Assembly (NCBI RefSeq): GCF_000014785.1
Contig: NC_008340.1
Span: 930,001 to 962,000 of the forward strand
From: Alkalilimnicola ehrlichii MLHE-1
GTDB taxonomy: Bacteria > Pseudomonadota > Gammaproteobacteria > Nitrococcales > Halorhodospiraceae
DNA length: 32,000 nt
Direction of reading: 5' to 3'
Under the pieces are notes generated by a model that was given only the letters and a program-made list of their open reading frames with translations, did no database searches and was not told the origin of the DNA. Made by a program: the position numbers and the translations under genes. Below are positions 6,201 through 30,791 of the stretch, in pieces. Each line of letters opens with the position of its first letter. Position 1 is the stretch's first letter.

Positions 6201-6660
6201 CGATGCGCCCCCGCTGGGCGGACAGGCTGAACGGCTGACTCTCCCGCAGGGCCTGCAGGTCGTAGCCGCCCTGCATCTCGCGGCGCAGGGTGGCCTCGGC
6301 GGCCTGGTCCTCGCGGGTGGTTTCGAGCAGGCGGTCGAGCCCGATCCAGTAATAGCCGAGCCCCTCGGCGCCGGGCAGGGGTGGGGGCGCGCAGGGTTCG
6401 CCGTCGCAGCGCCAGTGGATGTCGCGGCCCAGCCGATCCACCTGCCATTGCCGCTCTCCCTCGCTGAAGGTGGCCGACAGCACCAGGTTGGCGGGGTCGT
6501 CGGTGCGGGTCTCCATCAGATGGCGCAGGGCCCGCACCACGCTGCTCTTGCCGGAGGCGTTGGGCCCCAGCAGCAGGTTGATCCGCGGGTCCAGCCCCTC
6601 CAGGTCGAATCCGGGGTGGATGCCGGGCAGTTGCCGAATGTGCAGGCTCTCGAGCTTCAT
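3247..6660 (-). CDS. SMC/SbcC-like coiled-coil AAA ATPase (YhaN-type) with a central membrane hairpin
   Basis: The ATG at 6660 (MKLESLHIRQLPG...) gives 1137 aa. Walker A is LLLGPNASGKSSVV at the N-terminus. ABC-signature-like LSTGTRMQLLIAL and Walker B LPLILDEAL lie near residue ~850. Between them are very long Ala/Arg/Glu/Leu/Gln-rich heptad-like segments. The start overlaps the stop of the upstream phosphoesterase gene by 4 nt (ATGA at 6657-6660). Confidence 0.8.
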   Translation of the reverse strand: MKLESLHIRQLPGIHPGFDLEGLDPRINLLLGPNASGKSSVVRALRHLMETRTDDPANLVLSATFSEGERQWQVDRLGRDIHWRCDGEPCAPPPLPGAEGLGYYWIGLDRLLETTREDQAAEATLRREMQGGYDLQALRESQPFSLSAQRGRIAARELQQRQQALRRVEREHQALASDEARLPELSEAVAEAQRARERRQACEQALLALDAARELRHQEDRLARYPDPMPVGLTRDRLETLEQQEAELARALASARDDQARAEADRQATGLADGGPPPAELQAAGEQARRLTRLEEQVRHTHEQLAATRRAAAQAARALGRGPDDDRAQPALSPEELAGLERLAHEAHAARERLQALDARLATLEPNAEPFDPAPLERGCHELRRWLRQPAPRPLHWLGLGLTGLGGAGTAALGLTLGHWPTVASSLVVLAGLGASAVAMGRRRDRRESETRFTELPLPAPEVWEEAAVRQRLDELEQAWHQARSLQQRRQEADQLHAQRGRARTEQAEAEQALHRHAAALGLDAELPLAFDRAVRLLSRHQEAREQQAAQEAVLDRQAQELDTLRDTLHHFLATWHTAPREERSEALGAALDDLRQRCEAAERARQQADNATRLIRELERQLRDTRRQLDQLYHDAGLQPDQRATLLERIDQLPEWQACRQALEAARSNYRLRREDLEGQADPDIIEWLEAGDEPALRRAAEDAAEAAGRLEPLREERAGIRTRLEQTRQRHDLEEALAQREEAREALAGEREQALSAAAARFLLERVARRHEQAHRPEALARADRLFARFTHQRYGLRLGPDQRLQAMDHHSEQPQPLERLSTGTRMQLLIALRVAWLEQLERQTRPLPLILDEALTTTDPERFQAVAGSLAALLETGRQIFYLSAQPEDARRWELALGQRPHCIELAQLRGTGSALSDQALQLPEAEPVPAPDGHTAESYARALQVPGIDPWRPAGEIHLFHLLRDRLDTLHRLLRDYRVHHSGELQRLLEDPALKHHLPAELREQLSRRVQLAHHWLQAWRQGRGRPVTRAVLEASGAVSDTFMPRVAELNDAHHGDARALLEALGAGEVSGFRRAKLEELESYLEAEGHLDPQPRLERDERYRAALAKVELPLEAIGRDAEIIDWLEAALLA

Positions 6661-7943
6661 GCGTCCGCCGCCTTCTGCGCGAGCAGAGCATCCAGGGCGG
6701 CCGTGCCGGCCTGCCACAGGCGGTCGGCCACGGCCCGATCATCCAGGGGGACGGGCGCCAGGTCCTGCCAGTGCTTGTGGCGGCACTCCGCCTCCAGGGC
6801 CTCCCGCGCCTCAGCAACCAGATTGCGGTACTCCGGATCGTCCGGGCCGGCGCGCAGGGCGAGCAGCTGGGCGGCCAGCAACCCCGCCGGGCTTGCCTCC
6901 CGGGCCAGGTGGCTCAGGTCGATTTCGGGGAGGGTCTCCAGGTGCAGGCGGTTGACGAAGACATCGGGCGGGCCGGGTAGCAGGGGGCTGTCCCGCAACT
7001 CATCGGCCAGCCGGTCGCGGACGGTGCCGCCTTGATCGACGCGCCCGGTGAGGCGGACCTGCAGGCCGACCAGCCGGGGTTGCCAGGCCTCGCCCTGCAG
7101 CCTCGCCTGCAGCGCCCGGACCTGCTCCAGCAGGCGGGTGCGACCATCTGCCGCATCGTTGAGGCCGCTCAGGTCGACAGCCAGTTCGTACCATTGCAGA
7201 GGCGCCAGCGGCCACTGCCGGAGTTCGGTGATGCCGCGACCATCCAGGCGGTAGAGCCAAGGCCCGCGTGGCCCGATCTCCGTGCGGCGCAGGGCGGTGA
7301 CCGAGCCCAGGTAGCCGGAGGGGTGCCCGGGGTCCAGCGGGTCGGGCCGGTGGATGTGGCCCAGTAGCCAGGCGTCCAGCCCGGCGCGTTCCAATTCGCC
7401 GGAGCTGACCGGGGCGTAGGGGCTGTCGGCCTGGTCGCGGTCACAGTGGAGCAGGCCGAGCTGCGGGCAGGACGCCGGCGGGAAGCGGTGATCGGCCAGC
7501 GGACTCAGTGCGCGCCGGGCCTCGACGAATGACCAGCCATGGACGATGGCTTCGGTGCCGTCGCGGCCACACAGCCGGGCCGCCTGCCAGCTACCGTCGG
7601 CGCCGAGCAGTTCGAAACCGGGCAGCTCCCGGGCCAGCCGGGGCAGCACGGCGGTGTCATGGTTGCCGCTGACTCCGAGCACGCGGATACCGGCCTCAAC
7701 CAAGCGCCGGACCCCGGTATGGAGCAGGCCGTAGGCCTCGAAGAAGTCCTGCTCCTGCTCTACCACGTCACCGGCAAAGAGCACCGCATCCACCGGCTGG
7801 CGGATGGCCGCATCCACCAGCCGTTGCCACGCTGCTGCGGGACCCAGGCGCGCCGGGTCATGTTGCTCGACGACCGCCTGGGGCAGCCCGGCGGGGCGGC
7901 GGCCCAGGTGCAGATCGCCCACGGCGAGGATCTCGAGCGTCAT
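6657..7943 (-). CDS. Calcineurin-like metallophosphoesterase, SbcD/Mre11-like (YhaO-type) nuclease
   Basis: 428 aa from the ATG at 7943 (MTLEILAVGDLHLG...). Phosphoesterase motifs appear in order: GDLH, FAGDVVE, VSGNHD, LLGHIHRP. GGAGG lies upstream of 7943, whereas the alternative ATG at 7961 has no SD. Translationally coupled to the downstream ATPase gene. Confidence 0.8.
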   Translation of the reverse strand: MTLEILAVGDLHLGRRPAGLPQAVVEQHDPARLGPAAAWQRLVDAAIRQPVDAVLFAGDVVEQEQDFFEAYGLLHTGVRRLVEAGIRVLGVSGNHDTAVLPRLARELPGFELLGADGSWQAARLCGRDGTEAIVHGWSFVEARRALSPLADHRFPPASCPQLGLLHCDRDQADSPYAPVSSGELERAGLDAWLLGHIHRPDPLDPGHPSGYLGSVTALRRTEIGPRGPWLYRLDGRGITELRQWPLAPLQWYELAVDLSGLNDAADGRTRLLEQVRALQARLQGEAWQPRLVGLQVRLTGRVDQGGTVRDRLADELRDSPLLPGPPDVFVNRLHLETLPEIDLSHLAREASPAGLLAAQLLALRAGPDDPEYRNLVAEAREALEAECRHKHWQDLAPVPLDDRAVADRLWQAGTAALDALLAQKAADA

Positions 7944-8143
7944 GCCTGCGTGTTCCTCCATAAGGACCGATGGGTATTGTACAGGGGGCGACGCCGGTGC
8001 GAGACAAAGGGCATATGCTTATAACTGGAACGGCTATAATCTATCACCGTCTTCGGCAGGTTCTATTGGCCAGAATGGTTTTAAATCTATAACATTCGGA
8101 AACGTTGATACGGAACGACTGTCGCTAACCAAGAGAGGTCGAC

Positions 8144-8806
8144 ATGACTGAAGAAGTGAATGAACAGCAAGAGCCCGTCCTCGCCATGCCGCAGCTGAAC
8201 AAGCCGGCCCCGGACTTCGAGGCGCAGACGACCCACGGCCCGAAGAAGCTCAGCGACTACCGCGGCAAGTGGGTGGTGTTGTTCTCCCACCCGGCGGACT
8301 TCACCCCGGTCTGCACCACCGAGTTCATGGCCTTCGCCCAGCGGTCCGAGGACTTCAAGGCCCTGAATACCGAGCTGCTGGGGCTGTCCATTGATGGCAT
8401 CCATGCCCACGTTGCCTGGGTCCGCAACATCAAGGAGAACTTTGGCGTCGAGATCAACTTCCCGATCATCGCCGACCTGAACATGAAGGTCGCCAATGCC
8501 TACGGGATGGTGCAGCCGGGTGCCAGCGACACCTCCGCGGTGCGTGCCACCTTCTTCATCGATCCCGAGGGCATCCTTCGGGCCATGATCTACTACCCGA
8601 TGACCAACGGCCGCTCCATCGACGAGGCCCTGCGCCTGGTCAAGAGCCTGCAGACCTCGCAGGAGCACGGCGTGGCCACCCCCGAGGCCTGGCAGCCGGG
8701 TGATCCGGTGATCGTGCCGCCGCCGGCGACCGTCGAGGAGGCTGAGGCGCGCAAGGATCAGGGCTACGATTACGTGGACTGGTACTTCTGCAAGAAGACC
8801 CTGTAA
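8144..8806 (+). CDS. 1-Cys peroxiredoxin (Prx6 / LsfA-like)
   Basis: 220 aa. It has the AhpC/TSA fold signature with peroxidatic Cys in FSHPADFTPVCTTEF, plus the Prx6-type C-terminal extension. Preceded by an AT-rich intergenic region and followed by a strong terminator. Confidence 0.9.
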   Translation: MTEEVNEQQEPVLAMPQLNKPAPDFEAQTTHGPKKLSDYRGKWVVLFSHPADFTPVCTTEFMAFAQRSEDFKALNTELLGLSIDGIHAHVAWVRNIKENFGVEINFPIIADLNMKVANAYGMVQPGASDTSAVRATFFIDPEGILRAMIYYPMTNGRSIDEALRLVKSLQTSQEHGVATPEAWQPGDPVIVPPPATVEEAEARKDQGYDYVDWYFCKKTL

Positions 8807-8859
8807 TCGGTCCAGAGGCCTCCGCGTCATAGCAGTATGAGATGACGTTGATGGGTCCA

Positions 8860-8894
8860 GCCGGGGTGCCACTGCGGTATCCCGGCCTTTTTTA
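8860..8894 (+). terminator. Rho-independent terminator after the peroxiredoxin gene
   Basis: GCCGGGGTGCC-ACTGC-GGTATCCCGGC forms an 11-bp stem (two G-U pairs) with a 5-nt loop, followed directly by CTTTTTTAT. Confidence 0.75.
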
Positions 8895-8911
8895 TATGGG
8901 AGGAGCGCATC

Positions 8912-9778
8912 ATGCAGACCCCCCTGGTGGAACCTTTCTTCGACGACGATACCCACACCTATAGCTATGTGGTGCAGGACCCGGACAGCCGGCATTGTGC
9001 CGTTGTCGACAGCGTGCTGGACTACGATCCGGCCTCCGGGCGCACCAGCTATGCCGGTGCGGATCGCATCATCGCCTACGTCCGGGAGCACGGCCTGCAG
9101 GTGGACTGGATCCTGGAGACCCACGTGCATGCCGATCACCTGTCGGCGGCGCCCTATCTGCGCCAGGCCTTGGGCGGCCAGATGGGCATCGGCGAGAACA
9201 TCCGCATCGTGCAGGATGTCTTTGGCAAGCTGTTCAACGCCGGGCCGGACTTCCCGCGGGACGGCAGCCAGTTCGATCGGCTGTTCAGCGAGGGTGACAC
9301 CTTTTCCATTGGCGGCCTGGAGGGCCGGGTGTTGCACACCCCGGGCCATACCCCGGCCTGCCTGACCTACGTGATCGGCGACGCCGCCTTCGTCGGCGAC
9401 ACCATCTTTATGCCCGACTTCGGCACGGCGCGGTGCGACTTCCCGGGCGGGGACGCGCGGGCGCTGTACCGCTCCATCCAGAAGATCTTCGCGCTCCCGG
9501 ATGAGACGCGCCTGTTCATGTGCCACGACTACGGCGCCCCGGGCCGGGATGAGTACCAGTACATGACTACGGTGGGCGAGGAGCGCCGGCACAACGTGCA
9601 CGTGGGTGAGGGGATCAGCGAGGACGAGTTTGTGGCCATGCGCACGGCGCGGGACGCCGAGCTCGGCATGCCGCGGCTGATCCTGCCCTCGGTCCAGGTC
9701 AACATGCGCGCCGGTGAGATGCCGCCTGCGGAGGACAACGGGACGGTCTACCTGAAGATCCCGGTCAACAAGGTCTGA
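8912..9778 (+). CDS. MBL-fold metallo-hydrolase (glyoxalase II / persulfide-dioxygenase-like)
   Basis: 288 aa. Metallo-beta-lactamase metal-binding motif ETHVHADH, later HTPGHTP and CHDY. GGGAGGAG SD 7 nt upstream of the ATG. Substrate class cannot be assigned from sequence alone. Confidence 0.8.
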   Translation: MQTPLVEPFFDDDTHTYSYVVQDPDSRHCAVVDSVLDYDPASGRTSYAGADRIIAYVREHGLQVDWILETHVHADHLSAAPYLRQALGGQMGIGENIRIVQDVFGKLFNAGPDFPRDGSQFDRLFSEGDTFSIGGLEGRVLHTPGHTPACLTYVIGDAAFVGDTIFMPDFGTARCDFPGGDARALYRSIQKIFALPDETRLFMCHDYGAPGRDEYQYMTTVGEERRHNVHVGEGISEDEFVAMRTARDAELGMPRLILPSVQVNMRAGEMPPAEDNGTVYLKIPVNKV

Positions 9779-9899
9779 ACCGGGGCCGGTCTGCACTGCC
9801 GGTGGCGGACCGTCCGTCGTCGGCGGCCTCCGGCGGGCGGGTGGCGATGGTACACTGTGCGGTCATCCCAGCCGCTCAGACTCGTTACGGAGCCCTTGC

Positions 9900-13639: not shown

Positions 13640-13716
13640 TGGTCGGGGTGACTGGATTCGAACCAGCGACTCCTGCCTCCCGAAGACAGTGCTCTACCAA
13701 GCTGAGCTACACCCCG
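13640..13716 (-). tRNA. tRNA-Pro (anticodon CGG)
   Basis: The 77-nt minus-strand sequence is CGGGGTG TA GCTC AGCTTGGTA GAGC A CTGTC TTCGGGA GGCAG GAGTC GCTGG TTCGAAT CCAGT CACCCCG ACCA. It folds as a full cloverleaf with a 7-bp acceptor stem, TTCGAAT T-loop, anticodon loop with CGG at 34-36 and G37, and encoded CCA. Confidence 0.93.
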
Positions 13717-20084: not shown

Positions 20085-20114
20085 TTGACAAGCCAAAAGG
20101 CACCCCCCTAGGCT
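20085..20114 (+). promoter_or_regulatory. Candidate sigma70 promoter of the vgrG operon
   Basis: Consensus TTGACA (20085-20090), 18-nt spacer, TAGGCT (20109-20114). It lies about 35 nt upstream of the vgrG ATG. The -10 is weak, so this is tentative. Confidence 0.3.
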
Positions 20115-20149
20115 AATCGACTACGGATTCCCATGCCAACGGACTGGCC

Positions 20150-22243
20150 ATGCCTACGGACAACGGACTGTACCTCGCCCTCTCGCGCCCCGGCGTGGCG
20201 GAGGCCGACCTGCCCCGGGTCACCGGGTTCACCCTGGATGAGCACCTCTCCCGGCCCTTCACCCTGACCCTGGACCTGGTCCACCCCTCACCCGATCTCG
20301 CCCCCGACGACTGGCTTGAGCAGGGCCTGGCCCTGGTGATCCATCAGGCCGGCCGCGTCACCCGCCGGGTCCACGGCGTGGTCACCGAGTTCCAGCGCGG
20401 CCGCACCGGCGCCCGGCGCACCGCCTACCAGCTGGTCGTCCGCCCCGCCCTCTGGCGGCTCTCCCTGCGCCGAAACTGCCGCATCTTCCAGCACGCCTGC
20501 CTGCTGGATGTCCTCCACACCCTGCTTTCGGAACATGGCATCACCGACGCCGCCTTCGCCGTCCGCCACCGCCCCGAGACCCGCGAGTACCTGGTGCAGT
20601 ACCGGGAGAGCGACCTGGCCTTTGTCCAGCGGCTTGCCGCCGAGTTGGGCATCGTCTACTTCCACGAGTTCGACGACACCCCCGAGGGCGGCCACCGCCC
20701 GGTGTTCACCGATACCCATCGGGGGTTGGGGCATGCGGGCGAATGGGTCTACCGCCCCCGCGCCGGCGGCGTAGCCGAGGCCCGCCATGTGCACACCCTG
20801 CGCGAGGCCCACCGGGTGCGCGCGCAGCGCGCCACCCTGGAGGATCGCCATTTCCGCACCCCCCGGCGGCGGCTGATCCACGCCCATGAGGCGGAGGGGG
20901 CCGAGTCGGGCGCCACCCCCTACGAGCACTACGACCACCCCGGCCGGTTTAAGAGCGAGGCCAGCGGCCGGGCCTTCACCCGGGTCCGGCTCGGCCAGTT
21001 GCGTGCCGACGCCCACACCGCCGAGGCCGAGAGCGATATCGCCGAGCTGCGCCCCGGCGTGCGCTTCACCCTGGATGGCCACGACGCCGGCGAACGGCGC
21101 CGGGACTGGCAGGTGGTCGGCGCCCGCCACACCGCCCGCCAGCCCGCCGCGCTGGAAGAGGACGCGATCCTGCTGGCCGCCGAGGGGCAGGGCGAGAACG
21201 AGGCAGGCGTGGCCCGGCTGAACAACCGGCTCACCCTCGTGCCCGCCGACACCGACTGGCGCCCGCCCCACGACCCGGACGCCGGCCCGCGCATGGAGGG
21301 CCCGCAGATCGCCCGGGTGGTGGGCCCCGAGGGGGAGGCGATCCACTGCGATGAGCACGGCCGGGTCAAGGTCCGTTTCCCCTGGGACCGCTACGCCGCC
21401 GATGACGAGCACGCCAGCGCCTGGCTGCGCGTCGCCCAGCCCTGGGCCGGGCCCGGCTACGGCGGGCTGTTCCTGCCCCGGGTGGGCCATGCGGTGATCG
21501 TCGACTTCATGGCCGGCGATCCGGATCAGCCGGTGATCACCGGCCGGGTCTACGATGGCCACAACACCCCGCCCTATCCGCTGCCCGAGCACAAGACCCG
21601 CAGCGTGCTGCGCAGCCGCAGCCAGGACGGTGAGGGCTACAACGAACTGCACTTCGAGGATGCCCGCGAGGCCGAGCGCATCCACCTGCACGCCCAGCGC
21701 GATCTCGACCTGCACACCCGCAACGACCGCTCCGAGACCATCGGCCGGCACAGCCACCTGGGCGTCCACGGCGACCGGCTCGCGGAGATCCACGGCGACG
21801 AGCACCTCACCGTGCAGGGCGAGCGGCGCGAGCGCACCGGTGGGGATCAGCATCTCAGCGTGGAGGGCACCCTGCATCTCAAAGCCGGTGAGGCCTGGCT
21901 AAGCGAATGCGGCCGGGAACTGCACGTCAAGTCGGGGCACAAGGCGGTCATCGACGCCGGCGCCGAGATCACCCTCCAGGCGGGCGGCAGTTTCATCAAG
22001 GTCGATCCCTCGGGCATCACCCTCAGCGGCCCCGGCATCCGCATGAACTCCGGTGGTCGCCCGGGCTCGGGATCGGGCCAACGCACGGCAACGCCCCTGT
22101 TGCCCGGGCGGGTCATGGCGGCGGAGGCCGATGGCTCCGCTAAGCCGGGACCTTCGGCGGTGCTCAAGCAGAGGTTCCTCCTGCACCAGGCCGCCCAGTC
22201 CGGGGCGGGCCTGTGCGAGGTATGTAGCGGCAAGGGAGAATAG
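20150..22243 (+). CDS. vgrG: Type VI secretion spike protein VgrG
   Basis: 697 aa. gp27-like N-terminal region (FTLDEHLSRPFTLTLDLV, YLVQYRESDLAFVQRLAAELGIVYF). gp5 OB-fold region (IARVVGPEGEAIHCDEHGRVKVRFPWDR...AWLRVAQPWAGPGYGGLFLPRVGHAVIVDFMAGDPDQPVITGRVY). Beta-helix repeats and GSFIKVDPSGITLSGPGIRMNSGG near the C-terminus. Confidence 0.93.
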   Translation: MPTDNGLYLALSRPGVAEADLPRVTGFTLDEHLSRPFTLTLDLVHPSPDLAPDDWLEQGLALVIHQAGRVTRRVHGVVTEFQRGRTGARRTAYQLVVRPALWRLSLRRNCRIFQHACLLDVLHTLLSEHGITDAAFAVRHRPETREYLVQYRESDLAFVQRLAAELGIVYFHEFDDTPEGGHRPVFTDTHRGLGHAGEWVYRPRAGGVAEARHVHTLREAHRVRAQRATLEDRHFRTPRRRLIHAHEAEGAESGATPYEHYDHPGRFKSEASGRAFTRVRLGQLRADAHTAEAESDIAELRPGVRFTLDGHDAGERRRDWQVVGARHTARQPAALEEDAILLAAEGQGENEAGVARLNNRLTLVPADTDWRPPHDPDAGPRMEGPQIARVVGPEGEAIHCDEHGRVKVRFPWDRYAADDEHASAWLRVAQPWAGPGYGGLFLPRVGHAVIVDFMAGDPDQPVITGRVYDGHNTPPYPLPEHKTRSVLRSRSQDGEGYNELHFEDAREAERIHLHAQRDLDLHTRNDRSETIGRHSHLGVHGDRLAEIHGDEHLTVQGERRERTGGDQHLSVEGTLHLKAGEAWLSECGRELHVKSGHKAVIDAGAEITLQAGGSFIKVDPSGITLSGPGIRMNSGGRPGSGSGQRTATPLLPGRVMAAEADGSAKPGPSAVLKQRFLLHQAAQSGAGLCEVCSGKGE

Positions 22244-22245
22244 CC

Positions 22246-22767
22246 ATGGATCACGGCGCATGGATGATGATCGATGGGGCGATCAACCCCGGGGCATTGC
22301 CCGCCATCTTCAGAGACGACGCCGGCGGCAGCGGCGCGATGGCCGTCCTGCATGGGACGGACTACGCGGCGATCGCCGACTCTGGGCCTTTGCTCGTGCG
22401 CGCAGGAGCGGGCAGCCACCTGATGGCGCAGTGGCGTGCAAACGAGCTGCCCGCACGCCACGCCTGGGTCTTTCAGAGTGACCGATCGGACGAGGAGGTT
22501 GCGGCCTTCTGGCGGCGTCGGCTGTTTTTCCTGGCGCCGGACGGGCGGCGATTCTGGTTCCGGTTCGCCGATGCCCGGGTCATGAGCAGAGCGCATGGGG
22601 ACAGGGCGCTCCCTGAAGGGTTCTGGCAGGGTCTTTCCGGCGTGCGTTTCCACCCACGACAAGCCGTCTGGTCCCCCGTGGACGAGGCGCGGGAGGGTGC
22701 GGACACCGGTGAATTCGTCATCAGCGAGGGGCAAGCGCAACGTATTGCCGGAGGGGCGGCGTCATGA
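22246..22767 (+). CDS. DUF4123-family T6SS effector adaptor/chaperone (Tap/Tec/VasW-like)
   Basis: 173 aa, starting 2 nt after the vgrG stop. DUF4123-like features are MIDGAINPGALPAIF, GPLLVRA and RFWFRFADARV (the family FR-[FY]-x-D-x-R-V motif). It is short for the family. Its stop overlaps the effector start (ATGA, 22764-22767). Confidence 0.75.
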   Translation: MDHGAWMMIDGAINPGALPAIFRDDAGGSGAMAVLHGTDYAAIADSGPLLVRAGAGSHLMAQWRANELPARHAWVFQSDRSDEEVAAFWRRRLFFLAPDGRRFWFRFADARVMSRAHGDRALPEGFWQGLSGVRFHPRQAVWSPVDEAREGADTGEFVISEGQAQRIAGGAAS

Positions 22768-25370
22768 CCATCGCCCAGTGCCCCTTGCTCGCCGCCATCG
22801 TCCCCGTCCGGTACGCCATCGGGGTCAACGGGGTGTCCAGCCCCTTCCTGGAGGACTTCGACCTGCCACCGTTGCAAGGCCGGCCGGTCACCGAGAGCCA
22901 GGGGTCTCCGGACGAGGCGGCTCCGCTGCGTTACGTCGCCCGGCCCCTTCGCAATGGCTGGTGTTACGTCTGGTTAGACAGCCAGCAACGGCTGGTCGAA
23001 TACCGGGTGCGCGGCAGCGCGCTGGAGGAGACCGATCGGGCCGGCGCCCCCATCGGGCCCACCGCCAGGGTCTGCATCTACGTACCGGCGGGCGAGACGG
23101 CCGCCATCGCCTGGTCCCCGGTGCGCTGGAGCGATGAGCAGTTCACCGCCATCGGGCGAGACGACGGCAGGCGCCGGGCCGTGATGCGCGAATTCGTGCC
23201 CGGCCAGGGGCCAGCCAGCAGCGCCGATGCCTGGTCGAACGAGATCCCTGAACTCGGCGAGTTTGACGAAAGGGACTTCCACTGGAGTATCGAGCAGCCC
23301 GCCACCCTGCCCGTATGGGAGGACATCAAGCGTGCGGTGGACGATGCCGAGCAGCACGCCACCGTGCTGGTGGACGACCCCTGGGGGGTGGTCATCGAAC
23401 TGGCCCACCTGGTGCGCCAGGGCCAGGCGCAGCGCGCCGACTGGCTCGCCAACGAAGGCGAGGAACGCATTCTGGCCGAGAACATCCTGGCCCTGGACCG
23501 TCAGGGCGAGGGCTTTCGCGGGCGACTCCCGCGGCTGGCCGACCGCGACCGCCTCGAGCAGGCCATTCACCACCATGGGCGGGAAATTAGGGCCATCGAG
23601 GAGAACCTCGATACCCTGGCCGCCGACTGGGCGCGCTGGATGGGCACCCTCTGGGGGGGCGAAGGCCCCGAGTCCATGGCCTCCGCCCAGAGCCACTTCG
23701 ACCCCTCGCTTGACGAACACCACGAGGCGATGGAAACCCTCTGGAGCGCGGCCCTGGGCGGTGTCACCCAATACGAAACCGGTGCCACCCTGGCCACCAA
23801 CCTGCTGGATCCCGATACCGGCCCCCCGGTCATGCCCGGCGGCCACTCCCTGTGGACGGCACTGTTGGGGCGGTTAGAACCGGTGCAACTGGCCGATGTC
23901 CAGCGCCTGGTCGGGGTCAGCGAGTCCCTGCAGGCCCAGGACTGGGAAACCTGGGCCCACAGCCTCAACCACCTGGCCGGACAGCTGGGCCACGGCCTGG
24001 CCACGGCCCGCGAGGGGCTGTTCCTCGTGCTCGCCACCACCATTGGGCCCATTCTCCGGGAACAGGGCGCCACCTCCGCCCACCGGACCCTGATCGCCGG
24101 CTATCTCGCCGCCGCGCTGGCGCGCAGCCGGCAGCGCCTGAAAGTGGAGTCGGTCGCCGCGCGCGCCCTGTTGGACTGGATGAACGAACCCAGCGCCCGC
24201 GCCGCCGGCGCCCCGTCGCCCCTGTACCAGATGCGCCCCGACCTGCTGCCCGAGCTCGACGCCCGGCAGGTCATCACCATCCGCGTGGTCGCGGAGGGCG
24301 CTTCTTCCGCCGAGGGCAACCCCTTCCTGCAGCGCGCCCTGCAGGAGGCCCCGCTGAAAAGCCTGCTGGTGCTGATGAATGGGTTGGTGGTGGTTCATGC
24401 GGGCAGCCAATTGGCCGCCGGTGATCGTTCCGTACAGACCGCAACAGCGGCGGCTGGGGGCGTATCCGGCACCATCAGCGCCACCGCCGCCACCATTCAG
24501 CACTTCGCGCAGATCCGCTCCGACGACATCCTTGCCCGCCAGGGCCTGTCCGCCGGCTGGCGGGGCGCCTTCGACCGCTACCTCCTCTGGGGTCAGGCCA
24601 CCAACCTGACTCTGTCGATCACTGCGGTCTTCGACGCCGTCTACTTCGGCTACGGCGCCTGGGAGAGCGTCCGCCAGGGGGATCGCCGATCGGGCACCAT
24701 CCAGGCCGGCATGGCCACGGCCGCCGCCGGCCAGACCGCCGCCGGCGCCCACGCCTTCCACACCTACCGCCAGGCCCGGCAAGCCCTGCTCGTGGGCCGG
24801 TCCACCCAGGCCGCGCGCACCGCCGCCCGGGCCCGGATCGCACCGGCCGTGATCCTCGCCCTGACGCTGGTCATCGTCGCCGGCGCGGTCAGCCTGCGCT
24901 TCACCCGCGACAACGAACTGGAACACTGGCTGCGCCGTACCCGCTTCGGCACCCACCCGGCCGACTGGGCCGGCGACCTGGACGAGGAACTCGGCCACCT
25001 CTACCGGCTGCTCTACCAGCCACGCATCCGGCTGGAGGCCCGCCAGGCCCGTAACCCCCGCTCCGGCGATGTCTACCACTACCGTGTCCTGCTGGTCACC
25101 TTCCCCGGCGCCACGCCCTTCCCGGGCATGTTCACCCTGGAGGCCACCGAGCGCTGGCGCACCGGGCTGGTCCGGCATGACGAACGCAGCCGGACCATCA
25201 CCGAAAAGGATCTCGACCTCGACATCGGCGGGGCGGAGGCGCCCGACGGCCCCGTCTACCGACTCATCTACCACAACACCCGGGAAGGCGACCGGCTGAG
25301 CTCCCTTTCCGGCACCCTGTACTATCGCCCGTTCCCCGATCTCACCCTGCCTCCCATCCGGATCAACTAG
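22764..25370 (+). CDS. VasX-like (BTH_I2691-family-like) membrane-active T6SS effector
   Basis: 868 aa. The N-terminus CPLLAAIVPVRYAIG plus GWCYVWLDSQQRLVEYRV matches my recollection of the VasX N-terminal loading domain. A cluster of hydrophobic/Gly-Ala helices at residues ~530-712 (LKSLLVLMNGLVVVHAG; LWGQATNLTLSITAVFDAVYFGYGAW; IAPAVILALTLVIVAGAVSL) suggests a pore-forming toxin. Its position after vgrG and DUF4123 mirrors V. cholerae vgrG2-vasW-vasX. Confidence 0.7.
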   Translation: MTIAQCPLLAAIVPVRYAIGVNGVSSPFLEDFDLPPLQGRPVTESQGSPDEAAPLRYVARPLRNGWCYVWLDSQQRLVEYRVRGSALEETDRAGAPIGPTARVCIYVPAGETAAIAWSPVRWSDEQFTAIGRDDGRRRAVMREFVPGQGPASSADAWSNEIPELGEFDERDFHWSIEQPATLPVWEDIKRAVDDAEQHATVLVDDPWGVVIELAHLVRQGQAQRADWLANEGEERILAENILALDRQGEGFRGRLPRLADRDRLEQAIHHHGREIRAIEENLDTLAADWARWMGTLWGGEGPESMASAQSHFDPSLDEHHEAMETLWSAALGGVTQYETGATLATNLLDPDTGPPVMPGGHSLWTALLGRLEPVQLADVQRLVGVSESLQAQDWETWAHSLNHLAGQLGHGLATAREGLFLVLATTIGPILREQGATSAHRTLIAGYLAAALARSRQRLKVESVAARALLDWMNEPSARAAGAPSPLYQMRPDLLPELDARQVITIRVVAEGASSAEGNPFLQRALQEAPLKSLLVLMNGLVVVHAGSQLAAGDRSVQTATAAAGGVSGTISATAATIQHFAQIRSDDILARQGLSAGWRGAFDRYLLWGQATNLTLSITAVFDAVYFGYGAWESVRQGDRRSGTIQAGMATAAAGQTAAGAHAFHTYRQARQALLVGRSTQAARTAARARIAPAVILALTLVIVAGAVSLRFTRDNELEHWLRRTRFGTHPADWAGDLDEELGHLYRLLYQPRIRLEARQARNPRSGDVYHYRVLLVTFPGATPFPGMFTLEATERWRTGLVRHDERSRTITEKDLDLDIGGAEAPDGPVYRLIYHNTREGDRLSSLSGTLYYRPFPDLTLPPIRIN

Positions 25371-25372
25371 CC

Positions 25373-26389
25373 ATGCAGCACCTACGCCGGTTCTTCGCCG
25401 ATCTCTCCCGCAATATCGGGCTGGCCGACGAGGTCATCACCCTGCGCCCCGACCGGCGCGCCGCCGCTCAGCCCATGCAGGCCGGCGATGTCCAGGACCA
25501 GACCGAGCACTACCTCGACCTTTCCACCGGCAGCTCAAGGGGCCTGTGGACCGGCATGTGGGGATTGATCTCGCTTTTGATGTTCTTACTGATGTTACCG
25601 ATTCTCTTTCAGGACTGGGAGGGGGTGGTCTTTGTTTTCAAGTTCATCGGTGCCATGGCCGGCGTCACCCTCTTCTTCTTCCTGCTCGAGGTTTTCTGGC
25701 CCGCGGCCCTGCCCCTGCGCTTCAATCGCCGCACCCGCGAGGTCTACTTCCAGGACGGCAAAAAGCTCTACCACACCCCCTGGGACGAGGCCGTCGCGTG
25801 GCTGCAGGAAACCCGCCAGGTCACCCACCATGCCGGCGTCAACCGGCTCACCCCGCTGCAGATCCTCCTCCAGCGCTTCCAGCAGCCCGACGAGGTCATC
25901 GCCGTCAACCTCAACCTCCCCATGGGCCACACCGCCCAAACCCAGGCCATGCTCTGGGAGTACCTGCGCTGTTACATGGAAAACGGCCCCTGGTTCGACG
26001 AGCAGGGCCGAAACACCCCCGAATCCACCCGCCAGGCGGTGCGCAAGCGCTTCGCCCAGCGCAATCGCACGGGCAAGATCGACATCGAACTCCACCGCGA
26101 GTTCGTCAACATGGGCGTCATGACCCGGGATGAAAAGTGGTTCACCAATGCCTTCCAGGCCGTCATGCTGCCCGCCCTCGTCCTGCGTGACTTTGTCTGG
26201 CAGCTCGCCCAGCGCCGGGCCGCACGCAGCCAGTGGCACCCCCTCGTGCGCGAACGCTGCCGCGCCGACGGCCCCACCTCCCGACTTTACGACATTGAGC
26301 GCGACCAGGGCCTGCACCCCGACGCCTCGCAAACCCTCCATCCCCACACCCAGCGTCGCTCTTCTCCGCACGAACCATCGAAGGCCTGA
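25373..26389 (+). CDS. Two-TM membrane protein, putative cognate immunity protein
   Basis: 338 aa, with the ATG 2 nt after the effector stop. Two adjacent TM helices (GLWTGMWGLISLLMFLLMLPILF; FIGAMAGVTLFFFLLEVFWPAAL) precede a soluble domain. The immunity role is inferred from position only. I recognise no named family. Confidence 0.55.
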   Translation: MQHLRRFFADLSRNIGLADEVITLRPDRRAAAQPMQAGDVQDQTEHYLDLSTGSSRGLWTGMWGLISLLMFLLMLPILFQDWEGVVFVFKFIGAMAGVTLFFFLLEVFWPAALPLRFNRRTREVYFQDGKKLYHTPWDEAVAWLQETRQVTHHAGVNRLTPLQILLQRFQQPDEVIAVNLNLPMGHTAQTQAMLWEYLRCYMENGPWFDEQGRNTPESTRQAVRKRFAQRNRTGKIDIELHREFVNMGVMTRDEKWFTNAFQAVMLPALVLRDFVWQLAQRRAARSQWHPLVRERCRADGPTSRLYDIERDQGLHPDASQTLHPHTQRRSSPHEPSKA

Positions 26390-28446
26390 TGTCGTTGAAC
26401 CTGGCGCCTCACATTGCCAATGCAGGCGACGCCCATATGCCTGAGTGGCCGGGCGAAGCCGGTGACGCCGAGCGTAACGACCTGGAGTCGCCCGCCGAGC
26501 TCTATTCGCAGCATCGCGAAGCCATAGAGCAGGTCACTGCCCGTTCAGGCGGCCACACGGGCTTCATTGGCGGGGCGCTGGCGCCCAACGGCATCGTCGA
26601 CGTGATCCGCCGGCAGGCGATGGAAGACTTCCTGGCCTATGCCACCCCGATGCAGGCGCAGTGGCAGAGCGAGTATCACCGTATCGGGGCCGACCTGGCC
26701 GCCATACTGCCCACCTGGCACACCCAGGCCCTGCTGCTCGACCGCGAAGAGGAGCATCACATCCTGCTGACCTGCCTGCTGGAAAAGCAGGCCGTCGAGA
26801 CCCTGCTGGCCTGCGGGCAGGAGGACTTCCTGTCGAGCTACTACGCCGGCGACGACCCGGTACCGGCACACCTGATGCATTACGTCCCCACCGCGTCCTT
26901 CGTGGAGGGATTCCTTTCCCAAAACACTGGCCTCCAGAAAGCGCTCACCCAGGCGTCCGCACTGATGGGCGCCCAGGGCGCACTCAGCCGCTACCAGCAG
27001 TGGCGGGGCGAGGTTGAACATCAGACCGGGCTGCGCTTTCGCAGCGTCGAGGGCCTCTCCGACGAAGCCCGAACCGCCATCGCGGGCGAAGTGCAAATCA
27101 AGGAGAAGCTGCTGGGGCAGGCGGTGCTCGGGACGTTGCTCGATGACGTACAGGATGTCGACCTGGGGCAGCGCATCACTACCCTGGCTTCGCGCTTGCC
27201 CGATGGGCAACGGCTGATGTTCGCGGAACGGCTGGGCCTGCTGGAGCTGGGCTGGGACATTCCCGATCAATCGGTACTGGGCCGCATCCAGCAGGCGCTG
27301 GACGACACCGATACGGCCATGACCCGGCTGACCGCGCTGGAGCGGGAGCTCGAGCAACTCCGGCGGAAACGCCAGCAGGAGATGGCGCGCGCGTCAAGGC
27401 GCGGTACCCGCCAGGCCCACCGCCGGGCGGCCGACCAATTCAACGCGCGCAAGATCCGGGAGGCCCAGGCAGACATCAACCGGCACAAGCGCCTGCTGGG
27501 CGAGGCATTCGACGCCCTGGCCGAGACCCGTGCGGCCGCCGGCAGCCCGGCGCAACTGGAGCGCTGGGCCAGGGTAGCCAATGGGGCGATGGGGGCCGTG
27601 GCCCTATTGGGTGGCCTTTCAGGTGCTCTCGAGGTTTTCAAGCAATCTCGGCGTATCGACCGCGCAGACACCGACGCCGAGCGACTGGCCTCACAGGTTG
27701 CCTTTACGGGCGCGGCCGGAGTCGCCCTGGGTGGCCTATCAATCGGCATCATGAGTATGGTCGGTCGAACCCTGGGCAAGCCGGCCGTCGCCTGGCGACT
27801 GCTGCTGCTCAAATTCGCCGGCCCCGCCGGCTGGGTGGTGGCGGTTGGCACCGCCCTGCTGATCATCGGCGAGGTGCTGGCCAATCGCTTCTCGTTGAGC
27901 CCTGTGCAGCGCTGGTGCCAGCGCAGTCACTGGGGGCGAGAAGATCAGGGCTGGGATCGCGAGGCCCACGAGCGGGAACTGGCCCGACTTGGCGATACCG
28001 ATCTCACGGTGGAACGGCAGGGGCAGGCCGAGCCCCATGGCGGCCCGGGGCCCGGGCCGGCAGGCACCGACCTCGCCATACGCATTGGCTTGCCCGGGCT
28101 TGACGCCCCCAATGCGGAAAACCTCGCGCTGGGCCTCTGGGGCGTCACCCCTCGCCTCAAGGAAATGACCCGAGACTTTCTCGAACATGCCGAGCTCGAA
28201 ACCCGGGGCTCGAGCTATGCCCTGCACTACCATTTCGATCCCGAAACATTGGCCGAATGCCACGAGTTCCGCCTCGTCATCCGCACGAAGGGCCCCGAAG
28301 CATCCACCACCCGGGTCTTCCAGTTGCATCGCCGCGGCACATCGCTCTCCGATGAGTGGAGGGAGATCTCCGCCCTCGGCGATCGTTTCCTCACGCGGTA
28401 CCAAGTGGGCAACTGGCCGGACATGCCCCTGACGCCCTGGCCGTGA
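26389..28446 (+). CDS. Paralog of the VasX-like effector lacking the N-terminal loading domain (putative second toxin)
   Basis: 685 aa. The ATG shares one base with the preceding TGA (TGATG at 26387-26391). Three hydrophobic helices lie at residues ~396-500 (GAMGAVALLGGLSGALEVF; VAFTGAAGVALGGLSIGIMSMVG; GPAGWVVAVGTALLIIGEVLA). They are followed by NRFSLSPVQRWCQRSHWGREDQGWDREAHERELARL. This aligns by eye with RFTRDNELEHWLRRTRFGTHPADWAGDLDEELGHL, which follows the last helix of the 868-aa effector. There is no PVRYA-type N-terminus. Confidence 0.55.
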   Translation: MSLNLAPHIANAGDAHMPEWPGEAGDAERNDLESPAELYSQHREAIEQVTARSGGHTGFIGGALAPNGIVDVIRRQAMEDFLAYATPMQAQWQSEYHRIGADLAAILPTWHTQALLLDREEEHHILLTCLLEKQAVETLLACGQEDFLSSYYAGDDPVPAHLMHYVPTASFVEGFLSQNTGLQKALTQASALMGAQGALSRYQQWRGEVEHQTGLRFRSVEGLSDEARTAIAGEVQIKEKLLGQAVLGTLLDDVQDVDLGQRITTLASRLPDGQRLMFAERLGLLELGWDIPDQSVLGRIQQALDDTDTAMTRLTALERELEQLRRKRQQEMARASRRGTRQAHRRAADQFNARKIREAQADINRHKRLLGEAFDALAETRAAAGSPAQLERWARVANGAMGAVALLGGLSGALEVFKQSRRIDRADTDAERLASQVAFTGAAGVALGGLSIGIMSMVGRTLGKPAVAWRLLLLKFAGPAGWVVAVGTALLIIGEVLANRFSLSPVQRWCQRSHWGREDQGWDREAHERELARLGDTDLTVERQGQAEPHGGPGPGPAGTDLAIRIGLPGLDAPNAENLALGLWGVTPRLKEMTRDFLEHAELETRGSSYALHYHFDPETLAECHEFRLVIRTKGPEASTTRVFQLHRRGTSLSDEWREISALGDRFLTRYQVGNWPDMPLTPWP

Positions 28447-28466
28447 CAACAAGGGACAGGACCTCC

Positions 28467-29801
28467 ATGCCCAGATCAACCATCGACGATACGTTACCCC
28501 CTATGCGCGCCGGCGAGCGCGAAAGCCGCGCCGGCGGCGAGCAGTACTGCCTGAGCCCTCTGCCCCTGCCCATCGACAGCGAACACGGCGTGGACGTGGC
28601 TCACATCGACGTGCGCCACGACGAGGTCACGATGGACCTGCGCCAGGGCGCCACCCCCGAGAGTCTCCTGGTTACGGGGCATATTGCCAGTGGGCTCATG
28701 ACTTTTTTGGCAGGACTGGCCCTCGTTTTCTTGCTGAGTGCCGTGTACAAGGGATCCCTTCCCTTCGAACTGGTAGTAGCAGGAGTGGGGGTTACTTACG
28801 GAATTGCGCTGTTTCCCTTCTTCATCGGCATTCTCTATCCCGATGTCATACTGAGGCGCATCCCACCCATTCGCCTGCATCGCCAACGCCGCGAGGTGGC
28901 CTTCGTGGTGGAGAGCCGGGGACAGAGCATTTGGTTACCCGACCCAACTAACATGTGGTTGGCGTCCACGGCCGGCACCATTGCCATGCTCACCGGATTT
29001 TTTGCAATATGGGATTCTGTGGAGTTTTTCCGCCCTGACGTTGAGGCGGCATTTCCTCTCATGATGCTGCTCCTGCATATCGCCTCCCTGGCCTTCCTGC
29101 CTCTCTATCCCTATTTCCATGACTTCTGCCGCAAGCTCGTCGGCCAACAACGCCAGACGGTGCTGGTCCCCTGGGAGGACGTGGTCGCCCTGGCGGTCTT
29201 CAACCCAAACCTCAGCGCCGGGGCGGTCACCGGCTTCGGCTGGAACTTCGCTCTGATGCCGCCCGATCCGGAACGACCCGGCTATACCCTGCCCGGGGCC
29301 GGCATCATCGTCGGGGTCGGCGGCCTCCCGGGCGCGCTGGCCCAGTGGGAGTACATCCGCCGCTTCATGGAGGAGGGGCCCGAGGCCATCACCTCTTCCG
29401 CCCGGGAGTGGGGCCTCGAGTGGTACGACGCCTACGTGGCCCGGGAAAAGGCCGAGTGCGAACGCACCCACGACAAGGCCCGCTGGCGGCGCTTTCGGCG
29501 CGAGCAGTGGTGGAATCATGCACGCTTCGCCCACTGGTACACCGAGTACCGCATGAAGCATGTGCTGCCCAAGGCGGTGCCCAAGGGCTGGCTGGCGGGG
29601 TGGTCCAGGCCCCTTCCCCGGGACCAGTGGGCCCGACCTTCGCGCGAACTCACTGAACTCGGCGAACAGCTACGCGCGGCCTACCAGCGCGGCGAGAAGT
29701 TCATCAAGATGGGCAATATCGAGAAACGCTTTGGGGTCGAGGTAGAGCCCTCCCCAGGTACGGCTTATCGCACACTGCCATTTGCGGCCAGCGCGGCCTG
29801 A
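28467..29801 (+). CDS. Four-TM membrane protein, paralog of the 25373-26389 product (putative second immunity protein)
   Basis: 444 aa from the ATG at 28467, 20 nt after the upstream stop. The track start at 28356 would overlap by 91 nt. Shared blocks with the 338-aa protein are IRLHRQRREVAFV vs LRFNRRTREVYF, VPWEDVVAL vs TPWDEAVAWL, and LAQWEYIRRFMEEGPEA vs AMLWEYLRCYMENGPWF. Two extra TM helices are inserted between the first two blocks. Confidence 0.55.
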   Translation: MPRSTIDDTLPPMRAGERESRAGGEQYCLSPLPLPIDSEHGVDVAHIDVRHDEVTMDLRQGATPESLLVTGHIASGLMTFLAGLALVFLLSAVYKGSLPFELVVAGVGVTYGIALFPFFIGILYPDVILRRIPPIRLHRQRREVAFVVESRGQSIWLPDPTNMWLASTAGTIAMLTGFFAIWDSVEFFRPDVEAAFPLMMLLLHIASLAFLPLYPYFHDFCRKLVGQQRQTVLVPWEDVVALAVFNPNLSAGAVTGFGWNFALMPPDPERPGYTLPGAGIIVGVGGLPGALAQWEYIRRFMEEGPEAITSSAREWGLEWYDAYVAREKAECERTHDKARWRRFRREQWWNHARFAHWYTEYRMKHVLPKAVPKGWLAGWSRPLPRDQWARPSRELTELGEQLRAAYQRGEKFIKMGNIEKRFGVEVEPSPGTAYRTLPFAASAA

Positions 29802-29804
29802 GCC

Positions 29805-30105
29805 GGCGCCATGAGCCAGACACCAACCGTTACGCTGCTCCAGGCTGCCCAGCCCAGAGCGGGCCTGTAAAAGGTATGCGGCGGCAAAGGAGTAAGGCCA
29901 TGGACCAAGGCGCCATGGCCGTCCTGCATGGCACGGCCTACTCGACATCGGTGGGGCGGAGGCGCCCGACGGCCCCGTCTACCGATTCATCTACCACGAC
30001 ACCCGGGACGGCGACCGGCTGAGCTCCCTTACCGGCACCCTGTACTATCGCCCGTTCCCCGATCTCACCCTGCCCCCCATCCGGATCAACTAGCCATGCA
30101 GCACC
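29805..30105 (+). pseudogene. Composite remnant: vgrG 3' end + DUF4123 5' end + effector 3' end + first codons of the immunity-like gene
   Basis: 29941-30105 matches 25218-25382 with about 6 mismatches in 165 nt (my by-eye alignment). That segment encodes the last 50 effector codons, the TAG, and CCATGCAGCACC. 29838-29940 matches the 22178-22372 junction (vgrG tail, stop, adaptor start) at lower identity. It has a premature TAA where the vgrG tail has Cys (GL*KVCGGKG vs GLCEVCSGKGE), a ~26-codon deletion in the adaptor, and an out-of-frame adaptor/effector fusion. Confidence 0.8.
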
Positions 30106-30791
30106 GGCGTCGGCGCGACCTGGGCATCGAACTGATGCTCGATGCCCCCGAGGGCTTCACCAGCGACTTCACGGGGCCGGCCGCCGAAATGACGGCATCG
30201 TCGCGGTACCCCTGCCGGACCCGCATGAGCGCCGAGCAGGACAGCGTCTTCCGGCGCGCGGCGGGGCATGCGCTGGTGTTTGTCCTGCCCGTGGGGCACC
30301 CCGAAGCTCCCACGTCGCCCAGCTCCGTCTGGTCAAGACCGCAGAGCGGGTGAGGGTAGTGGTCGACGGGCCGGCCATCTCTCGCGTGCTGGTGGGCTTG
30401 GCGATTTACAATTTGGCCGGTGAACTCGCAGGGTTACTTCACGTTGACCCAGACGAAGAGATTAGTTTGCAGGAGGCGAGGCTTGGTAGTGCAGGCCTCG
30501 ATCTGGTTGCGGCGTCCTGTTCCTGTCCATATCGACTCCCATCAGAGGGTGGTGGAGGATGCCGAACTGGTCCAGCACGAGGGTCGGCAGGACCGCGAGT
30601 TTTACAAGTCGGATGACTGGTGGTGGAACCACAAGCGGATCAGCTGCCTGAAGAGCCAGCTAGGGCTCTCAGTGGTATTGATAGGCTTCCCACCCAATCA
30701 ACTACCCCTGGCGCCAACTATGCTGCCAGTTGACCCCACAGATCGGCTGAATCGACATGGGCGCCTACCGGGAACAGCAGGCCCGGCAGAA

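Follow-up and report, generated by a model that had tools for sequence, protein, structure and literature searches.

Does a vgrG island in the genome of Alkalilimnicola ehrlichii MLHE-1, in which two large toxin-like genes are each followed by a gene for a membrane protein, encode two working toxin/immunity pairs, or one such pair together with the leftovers of others? We analysed a window of 32,000 nucleotides (nt) of this genome (NCBI RefSeq assembly GCF_000014785.1, contig NC_008340.1, positions 930,001 to 962,000 of the forward strand) that contains this type VI secretion system (T6SS) island; all coordinates below are positions in the window, and all features of the island lie on the forward (+) strand. 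The initial annotation had read it as a satellite island of six packed same-strand genes with a doubled toxin/immunity layout, the second pair not being known from VasX-type modules. We recovered all six open reading frames (ORFs) with the spacing claimed (from gene 1 to gene 6: a 2-nt gap, an ATGA overlap, a 2-nt gap, a TGATG overlap and a 20-nt gap), and genes 5 and 6 were 100% identical to the A. ehrlichii MLHE-1 proteins ACN2MM_04845 and ACN2MM_04850. The doubled layout itself was not borne out. In our view the island very probably holds one intact VasX-type module, a truncated toxin of a different VasX type accompanied by an intact immunity gene, and the fossil of a third module, as would result from serial replacement of effector-immunity (EI) modules.

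By domain content and gene order, we identified genes 1 to 4 as a canonical, intact auxiliary T6SS module. Gene 1 (20150-22243, 697 aa) encodes the spike protein VgrG, with Pfam matches to Phage_GPD (8e-81), Gp5_trimer_C (2e-22) and Phage_base_V (1.6e-16) and a match to TIGR03361 (4.9e-166, 553 bits for a cutoff of 186). Gene 2 (22246-22767, 173 aa) encodes a short DUF4123 adaptor (PF13503; 1.6e-17, 64.3 bits for a cutoff of 25.8), a putative Tap/VasW-like chaperone for the product of gene 3, which it directly precedes with the ATGA overlap; it is 39-45% identical by tblastn to its homologs in related loci. Gene 3 (22764-25370, 868 aa; hereafter effector 1) encodes a predicted membrane-targeting toxin of the VasX family with a MIX/VasX_N domain, residues 11-147 matching VasX_N (4.7e-15, 56.4 bits for a cutoff of 27); it also matches NF041559 (BTH_I2691_fam; 1.4e-33, 116.5 bits, under the curated cutoff of 150 bits), and its homologs in Halomonas and Modicisalibacter, which are named “toxin VasX”, are of 865-869 aa and 48-56% identical over their full length. 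Gene 4 (25373-26389, 338 aa; imm1) encodes a DUF6708 protein (PF20455; 1.9e-11, 44.6 bits for a gathering score of 27) with two hydrophobic regions in a Kyte-Doolittle scan, 53-56% identical to the products of the DUF6708 genes that come after the Halomonas homologs of effector 1. A DUF6708 protein, Tsi3a, is listed as a T6SS immunity protein in a published paper. The profile searches proposed in the initial annotation thus returned the VgrG, DUF4123 and VasX_N domains it had named, and DUF6708 in addition.

The same module recurs in Halomonas: in Halomonas sp. 328 and sp. 1513 it consists of hcp, vgrG, a DUF4123 gene (175-181 aa), a VasX gene (867 aa) and one to three tandem DUF6708 genes (~331 aa), so that a short adaptor is normal for the effector-1 subfamily. 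The order vgrG, DUF4123 adaptor, VasX_N/MIX effector and membrane immunity protein is also that of the Vibrio cholerae Aux2 cluster (vgrG2-vasW-vasX-tsiV2); here the logic first proposed for these four genes held, both in gene order and in domains. Compared with Aux2 and the VasX-Tke5-Ptx2 family, the island differs in the BTH_I2691 score of its effector, which is below the cutoff, in its unusually short adaptor (173 aa) and in having no hcp.

We then asked what kind of toxin effector 1 may be. In an AlphaFold2 model (mean predicted local distance difference test, pLDDT, 72), the N-terminal domain (residues 9-203) is rich in beta-structure and the C-terminal one (754-867) is a beta-sandwich; between them lie a long stretch of helix and then the hydrophobic helices (~530-710). 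Cryo-EM of the VasX-family toxin Ptx2 revealed the domain order MIX, scaffold, transmembrane domain and immunoglobulin-like C-terminal domain (bioRxiv 10.1101/2025.04.30.651342), and the predicted succession of a beta-rich N-domain, helical scaffold, hydrophobic helices and C-terminal beta-sandwich in effector 1 resembles it. This agreement lies in the secondary-structure layout of the model; Ptx2 itself was not among the Foldseek matches, and outside the N-domain effector 1 has no detectable sequence similarity to the solved toxin. The initial annotation had suggested a comparison with colicin-type pore-forming domains, for which we found no support: a Foldseek search of the model against the PDB gave no match at E ≤ 0.001, and the 50 matches listed, the best being small beta-sandwiches (E ~0.1), include no colicin; sequence and profile searches of the PDB with effector 1 yielded nothing significant either. 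This agrees with the statement of the Ptx2 authors that the folds of the VasX family are unique (bioRxiv 10.1101/2025.04.30.651342).

Is gene 5 (26389-28446, 685 aa) a second effector? It had been taken for a paralog of the C-terminal two-thirds of effector 1, a relationship that did not survive comparison. A BLASTP alignment of the two proteins had an E-value of 0.18, and in a profile-profile comparison of the two families only MIX aligned (effector 1 residues 2-247 with residues 23-274 of the gene-5 family protein P0002, probability 95%). Gene 5 begins almost exactly where this domain, common to both families, ends. It had no Pfam match and a weak match to NF041559 (32.6 bits), confined to the far C-terminal part of the model; the BTH_I2691 scores of effector 1 and gene 5, significant yet below the cutoff, point to divergent subfamilies. 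All close relatives of gene 5 are proteins of 1099-1159 aa that carry VasX_N (PF20249), and a profile built from an alignment of gene 5 with its relatives (11 sequences) matched the N-domain of Ptx2 at 6e-9.

The nearest relative, P0002, is a 1099-aa “toxin VasX” encoded in the same A. ehrlichii genome and ~90% identical to gene 5. Gene 5 aligns to it in two segments, P0002 residues 272-650 (92%) and 791-1099 (89%). Parent residues 1-271, which comprise the whole N-terminal MIX loading domain, are missing, so that gene 5 starts just after VasX_N. The two segments meet at an ALAE motif in gene 5 (27514-27525, codons 376-379), which marks an internal in-frame deletion; in P0002 the motif flanks the missing segment on both sides. 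This deletion removed ~143 conserved residues, including a hydrophobic helix at P0002 residues 715-735; three hydrophobic helices and the C-terminal domain are retained. Every member of the 11-sequence alignment except gene 5 has the first 271 residues as well as the internal segment. The AlphaFold2 model of P0002 (pLDDT 38) is too poor for placing the deletions on a structure.

No other protein with the architecture of gene 5 was found among 34 close and 19 distant relatives. In a representative library of 1.8 billion proteins, full-length relatives had 1064-1218 aa and the only short ones were C-terminal fragments. Two candidates for homologs lacking MIX, P0028 (879 aa) and P0030 (822 aa), were rejected: in each case a frameshift or gap divides a full-length gene, which has its own DUF4123 gene upstream, and neither is an orphan cassette. 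Among the relatives found there is thus no conserved family of ~685-aa MIX-less toxins. Nor does a second adaptor gene precede gene 5: the ~300-aa adaptor that is canonical for the long subfamily is absent from the window. On these comparisons we classify gene 5 as a copy, shortened by two deletions, of a toxin gene from another VasX subfamily (~1100-1150 aa), whose remaining product could not be loaded on a T6SS and is probably inactive; loss of MIX and of part of the conserved helical region would most likely leave it neither secreted nor toxic. Separately, P0002 and gene 5 share a 47-aa deletion near P0002 residue 335 (alignment columns 336-382) relative to all nine other relatives. It lies just after MIX, roughly at the position of the immunity-binding “sensor region” of Ptx2, and the full-length P0002 may itself be atypical.

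The boundary between genes 4 and 5 carries a scar of the first deletion. The tblastn match of P0002 starts at 26356, 33 nt upstream of the gene 5 ATG, and the intervening frame (26356-26388) reads ...SLFSARTIEGL-M, that is, 11 in-frame codons corresponding to P0002 residues 261-271, devoid of a start codon and overlapping the tail of imm1. The ATG of gene 5 is accordingly an internal methionine of the parent gene. Conversely, the last ~10 codons of imm1 (26351-26389) read DNA derived from the long toxin gene out of frame, giving imm1 a chimeric tail absent from its Halomonas homologs. Given the orphaned in-frame codons and this extra tail, we regard the TGATG overlap as an accident of the deletion junction (~26350-26388), which arose with the deletion and did not evolve to couple the two genes. 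By chance, the codons ATC GAA GGC CTG ATG of the parent gene supply a Shine-Dalgarno (SD)-like GAAGG ahead of the methionine, so that translation of the remnant is possible.

Gene 6 (28467-29801, 444 aa; imm2), a membrane protein distantly related to DUF6708, shows what the remnant once belonged to. A Kyte-Doolittle scan gave four main hydrophobic regions and a weak fifth segment (residues 274-292); two transmembrane (TM) segments in the 338-aa protein and four in the 444-aa protein had been predicted, and hydrophobicity bears out both counts, apart from that weak addition. The two membrane proteins had also been called related, which holds weakly (BLASTP 1e-5, 29% identity). Against PF20455 imm2 scored 18.2 bits, under the gathering score of 27, and some of its close homologs carry PF20455. 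End to end, imm2 aligns (73-78% identity by tblastn, 74-79% in protein alignments) with the gene that directly follows a full-length VasX gene in Thioalkalivibrio sp. ALE10 (L001) and in Billgrantia kenyensis (L002). The Billgrantia module consists of vgrG (685 aa), a DUF4123 gene (299 aa), a VasX gene (1148 aa), a 20-nt spacer and a gene for a 442-aa membrane protein, and the Thioalkalivibrio locus has the same gene order; the spacer before imm2 in the window is likewise of 20 nt. A second A. ehrlichii copy, P0036 (ACN2MM_00665), is 85% identical to imm2. We saw no sign of decay in imm2, which is of full length and, with Billgrantia as outgroup, has as many unique changes as P0036 (20 each). 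From its homologs and their position, we take gene 6, intact and orphaned at this locus, to encode the kind of immunity protein that belongs with long VasX toxins.

Downstream of gene 6 we found a third layer. Positions 29835-29913 are 80% identical to 22181-22259, which covers the last ~63 nt of vgrG and the start of the adaptor gene, and 29909-29944 are 89% identical to 22333-22368, an internal piece of the adaptor gene. By tblastn, the vgrG 3' end (29835-29897) matches VgrG residues 678-696, and the 5' end of the DUF4123 gene (29900-29944), which has an internal 78-nt deletion, matches adaptor residues 23-41. There follows at 29941-30113 the 3' end of an effector-1 gene (its last 50 codons and the stop) with the first six codons of imm1, 95% identical to 25218-25390 and matching effector-1 residues 819-868 in tblastn (92%, E 3e-27). 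We interpret 29835-30113 from these matches as a ~280-bp fossil of a third module, of the effector-1 type. No match to the module proteins or their homologs was found in 30114-30790. The span first given for the island, 20085-30105, starts 65 nt upstream of the vgrG ATG and ends 304 nt after the gene 6 stop codon; the six genes described within it were all recovered, and its last part runs over this degenerate module, which had gone undescribed and whose presence accounts for an end at 30105.

How unusual is such an arrangement? We inspected related loci and found that extra immunity genes and effector remnants after VasX-type EI pairs are common in relatives. In Thioalkalivibrio sp. ALE10 (L001) the VasX and immunity genes are followed by an 81-aa VasX 3' remnant (6412-6654; 84% identical to the C-terminus of P0002) and a second immunity gene; two immunity genes stand in tandem in L006, and three immunity-like genes are present in L005. 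Three tandem DUF6708 genes come after the 867-aa toxin in Halomonas sp. 328 (L008, 12608-15602), another vgrG stands right after the immunity gene in Halomonas casei (L004, 6888-8153), and an extra VasX fragment lies at the end of a Halomonas contig (L003, 9266-9460). The claim that a second pair would be novel for VasX modules therefore falls, both to these arrays and to a published displacement model, in which incoming EI modules displace older effectors and old immunity genes stay behind as orphans (Kirchberger et al. 2017, PMC5361080).

The island resembles the arrays of Kirchberger et al. (2017, PMC5361080) in having an intact EI pair by vgrG and the adaptor and, after it, an immunity gene left without a working cognate effector. 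As in those arrays, an effector 3' leftover precedes the orphan, the orphan closely resembles the cognate immunity genes of bona fide EI pairs in other strains, and the sequences bear signs of mosaic recombination. The features on which their model rests, namely a downstream immunity gene lacking a functional cognate effector, its resemblance to cognate genes and physical scars of displacement, were all found here. The differences are that the host belongs to the Ectothiorhodospiraceae and not to Vibrio, that the remnant spans 685 codons and is still an ORF instead of a short 3' stub, that the junction falls within the immunity gene ahead of the remnant, and that the third fossil includes a vgrG 3' end. 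This last point suggests that whole units from vgrG to the immunity gene once stood in tandem, or were replaced as units.

We infer the following course of events. In its canonical form, the older module to which genes 5 and 6 belonged would have consisted of vgrG, a ~300-aa DUF4123 adaptor, a ~1150-aa VasX toxin and a ~443-aa immunity protein. A first deletion would have fused the 3' end of imm1 to codon ~261 of the long toxin gene, removing the native stop of gene 4, the intervening DNA and the first ~260 codons of the toxin gene, with loss of MIX. A second, between the two ALAE motifs, would have taken ~143 aa with one clearly hydrophobic helix. What still operates would be the first module. 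If it works as VasX, Tke5 and Ptx2 do, the 868-aa toxin would be bound by the adaptor at its MIX/VasX_N domain and loaded on the VgrG tip. Effector 1 would then reach the periplasm of a rival, where, again by analogy, its hydrophobic helices would enter the inner membrane and collapse the potential across it, and the 2-TM DUF6708 protein would protect sister cells by blocking the membrane step. Gene 6, kept as an orphan, would most plausibly serve to protect the cell when neighbours deliver VasX toxins of the long type.

Several observations weigh against reading gene 5 as a mere remnant. It is an uninterrupted ORF of 685 codons, with the SD-like GAAGG lying 6-10 nt ahead of its ATG and a stop/start overlap joining it to imm1, and may well be translated. 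A relative-rate test gave 25 unique substitutions in gene 5 and 16 in P0002, which is not a significant difference, and in two tracts, of 232 and 143 aa, the proteins do not differ at all. Gene 5 is thus of recent origin or stays close to P0002 through gene conversion, and it shows no obvious decay. As to the ORF, the G+C content of the region is 68%, and it contains numerous spurious antisense ORFs 200-500 codons long. VasX-type toxins, moreover, are harmless in the cytoplasm and act from the periplasm (bioRxiv 10.1101/2025.04.30.651342). With stop codons rare at this G+C content and no harm to be expected from a cytoplasmic product, the ORF would be expected to persist, and its persistence is weak evidence of function.

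The identical tracts bear most directly on an alternative in which sequence passes between an orphan toxin/immunity cassette, formed by gene 5 and imm2, and the full-length VasX/immunity locus elsewhere in the genome, in the manner of the orphan toxin C-terminal (CT) cassettes Rhs-CT and CdiA-CT. Such a recombination reservoir, which would switch the toxin's variable membrane-helix region together with the matching immunity helices, is compatible with displacement. We compared gene 5 with P0002 and imm2 with P0036 at the level of protein sequence. Residues 58-289 of gene 5 have no differences from P0002 (0/232), over a stretch in which P0002 and its next relative P0003 differ at 21 positions, and residues 462-604 again have none (0/143; P0002 and P0003 differ at 23). 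Residues 290-367, in contrast, differ from P0002 at 20 of 78 positions where P0002 and P0003 differ at 4, and residues 410-461, in the hydrophobic helices, differ at 21 of 52 (23 between P0002 and P0003). In imm2 the differences from P0036 cluster in the TM hairpins (residues 61-203), and P0036 is closer to the Thioalkalivibrio immunity protein (87%) than to imm2 (85%). This mosaic identity and incongruent phylogeny indicate recombination, as far as protein alignments can, and both the alternation of identical tracts with a diverged patch and the seat of the remaining divergence, in the toxin helices and the immunity hairpins, would fit a reservoir.

The likeness to orphan Rhs-CT and CdiA-CT cassettes extends further: these, too, combine a 5'-truncated toxin gene lacking the delivery domain with an intact immunity gene downstream of a full system, the long tracts identical to a full-length gene could support homologous exchange, and a precedent for orphan-cassette recombination is cited in PMC5361080. 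Here, however, the full-length partner is at another locus and not directly upstream, the toxin is of the MIX/VasX type, the remnant is also internally deleted, and exchange is a candidate process. The 143-aa internal deletion lies between a conserved flank and the variable patch, with only ~30 identical codons between deletion and patch, so that most crossovers would import a defective toxin; the second locus was compared as protein only, so that no DNA-level conversion tracts or breakpoints are shown; and exchange with external alleles would explain the mosaic equally well. We consider this alternative unlikely, and likewise doubt that gene 5 and imm2 are maintained by gene conversion with the full-length locus, the remnant perhaps being translated from its accidental SD-like motif and ATG.

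A second alternative is that the whole island is a dead relic, its six genes drifting for want, for example, of a functional T6SS core or of a supply of Hcp. The window lacks hcp, PAAR and core genes, whereas the Halomonas modules begin with hcp. Yet vgrG, the adaptor gene, effector 1, imm1 and imm2 are all of full length relative to their homologs and keep the residues conserved in their families, and the genome contains at least one more complete VasX/immunity pair, itself indirect support for a T6SS core cluster in the genome. We consider this reading very improbable.

That the 685-aa protein is an active, MIX-independent toxin piggy-backed on effector 1, VgrG or the adaptor, with gene 6 as its immunity gene in a true double-toxin module, is scarcely credible: the intact ORF with its tight packing and SD-like motif, the three hydrophobic helices and C-terminal domain still in place, and the intact immunity gene would all suit such a toxin, but it would start at an internal methionine of a longer gene after 11 orphaned in-frame codons, would have lost ~143 conserved residues with helix 715-735, would stand alone in its architecture (0 of 34 close and 19 distant relatives) and would lack the canonical ~300-aa adaptor.

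The surroundings of the island fit a satellite locus, as originally proposed; rplU and rpmA lie directly downstream of it. None of the other large ORFs scanned in the window encodes a T6SS core component, Hcp or a PAAR domain, so that the absence first noted holds for them. These ORFs are housekeeping genes: MgtE, dCTP deaminase, an SbcCD-like pair, a PAS-GGDEF-EAL protein, ispB, Usp, BCCT, an RNase T-like exonuclease, DUF294, rplU and rpmA. A literature search returned no relevant paper on T6SS in Alkalilimnicola. A promoter and terminator scan of the region performed no better than on shuffled sequence, the sole promoter-like site being upstream of rplU. Below the threshold of that scan, 20086-20125, where the span first given for the island begins, contains a perfect TTGACA hexamer and, after 18 nt, TAGGCT, which could be a promoter of the island.

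Elsewhere in the window, a tRNA gene (13643-13716, minus strand (-); Rfam RF00005, 61.7 bits) lies directly downstream of ispB, ~6.4 kb from the T6SS island. A divergent SbcC/SbcD-like pair on the minus strand (3247-7961, -) encodes a 1156-aa SMC/AAA ATPase and a 434-aa metallophosphoesterase, with weak matches only, to sbcD, Mre11 and the PADLOC defence ATPases mad3, LmuB and GajA. A 569-aa ORF on the same strand (8087-9796, -) had no Pfam, NCBIfam or PADLOC match and sits in the kilobase of lowest G+C content in the window (59.7% compared with ~68%); it may be foreign DNA or not a real gene.

For annotation, gene 5, now a “hypothetical protein”, should be labelled a truncated VasX remnant and gene 6 an orphan immunity gene; a count of effectors should not credit the locus with two. 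The pattern itself is already known, and the island is another instance of it beyond Vibrio, of modest novelty. Should gene conversion with the full-length locus occur after all, it would give VasX-type pore toxins a means of toxin switching like that of Rhs and contact-dependent inhibition (CDI) systems. The divergence, concentrated in the hydrophobic helices of the toxin and the TM hairpins of the immunity protein, indicates where toxin-immunity specificity may lie, and supplies allele pairs with which this can be tested. On the displacement reading, the island is a three-layer fossil record, according to which the effector displacement and immunity retention described in Vibrio would also shape VasX islands in haloalkaliphilic Ectothiorhodospiraceae and in Halomonadaceae.

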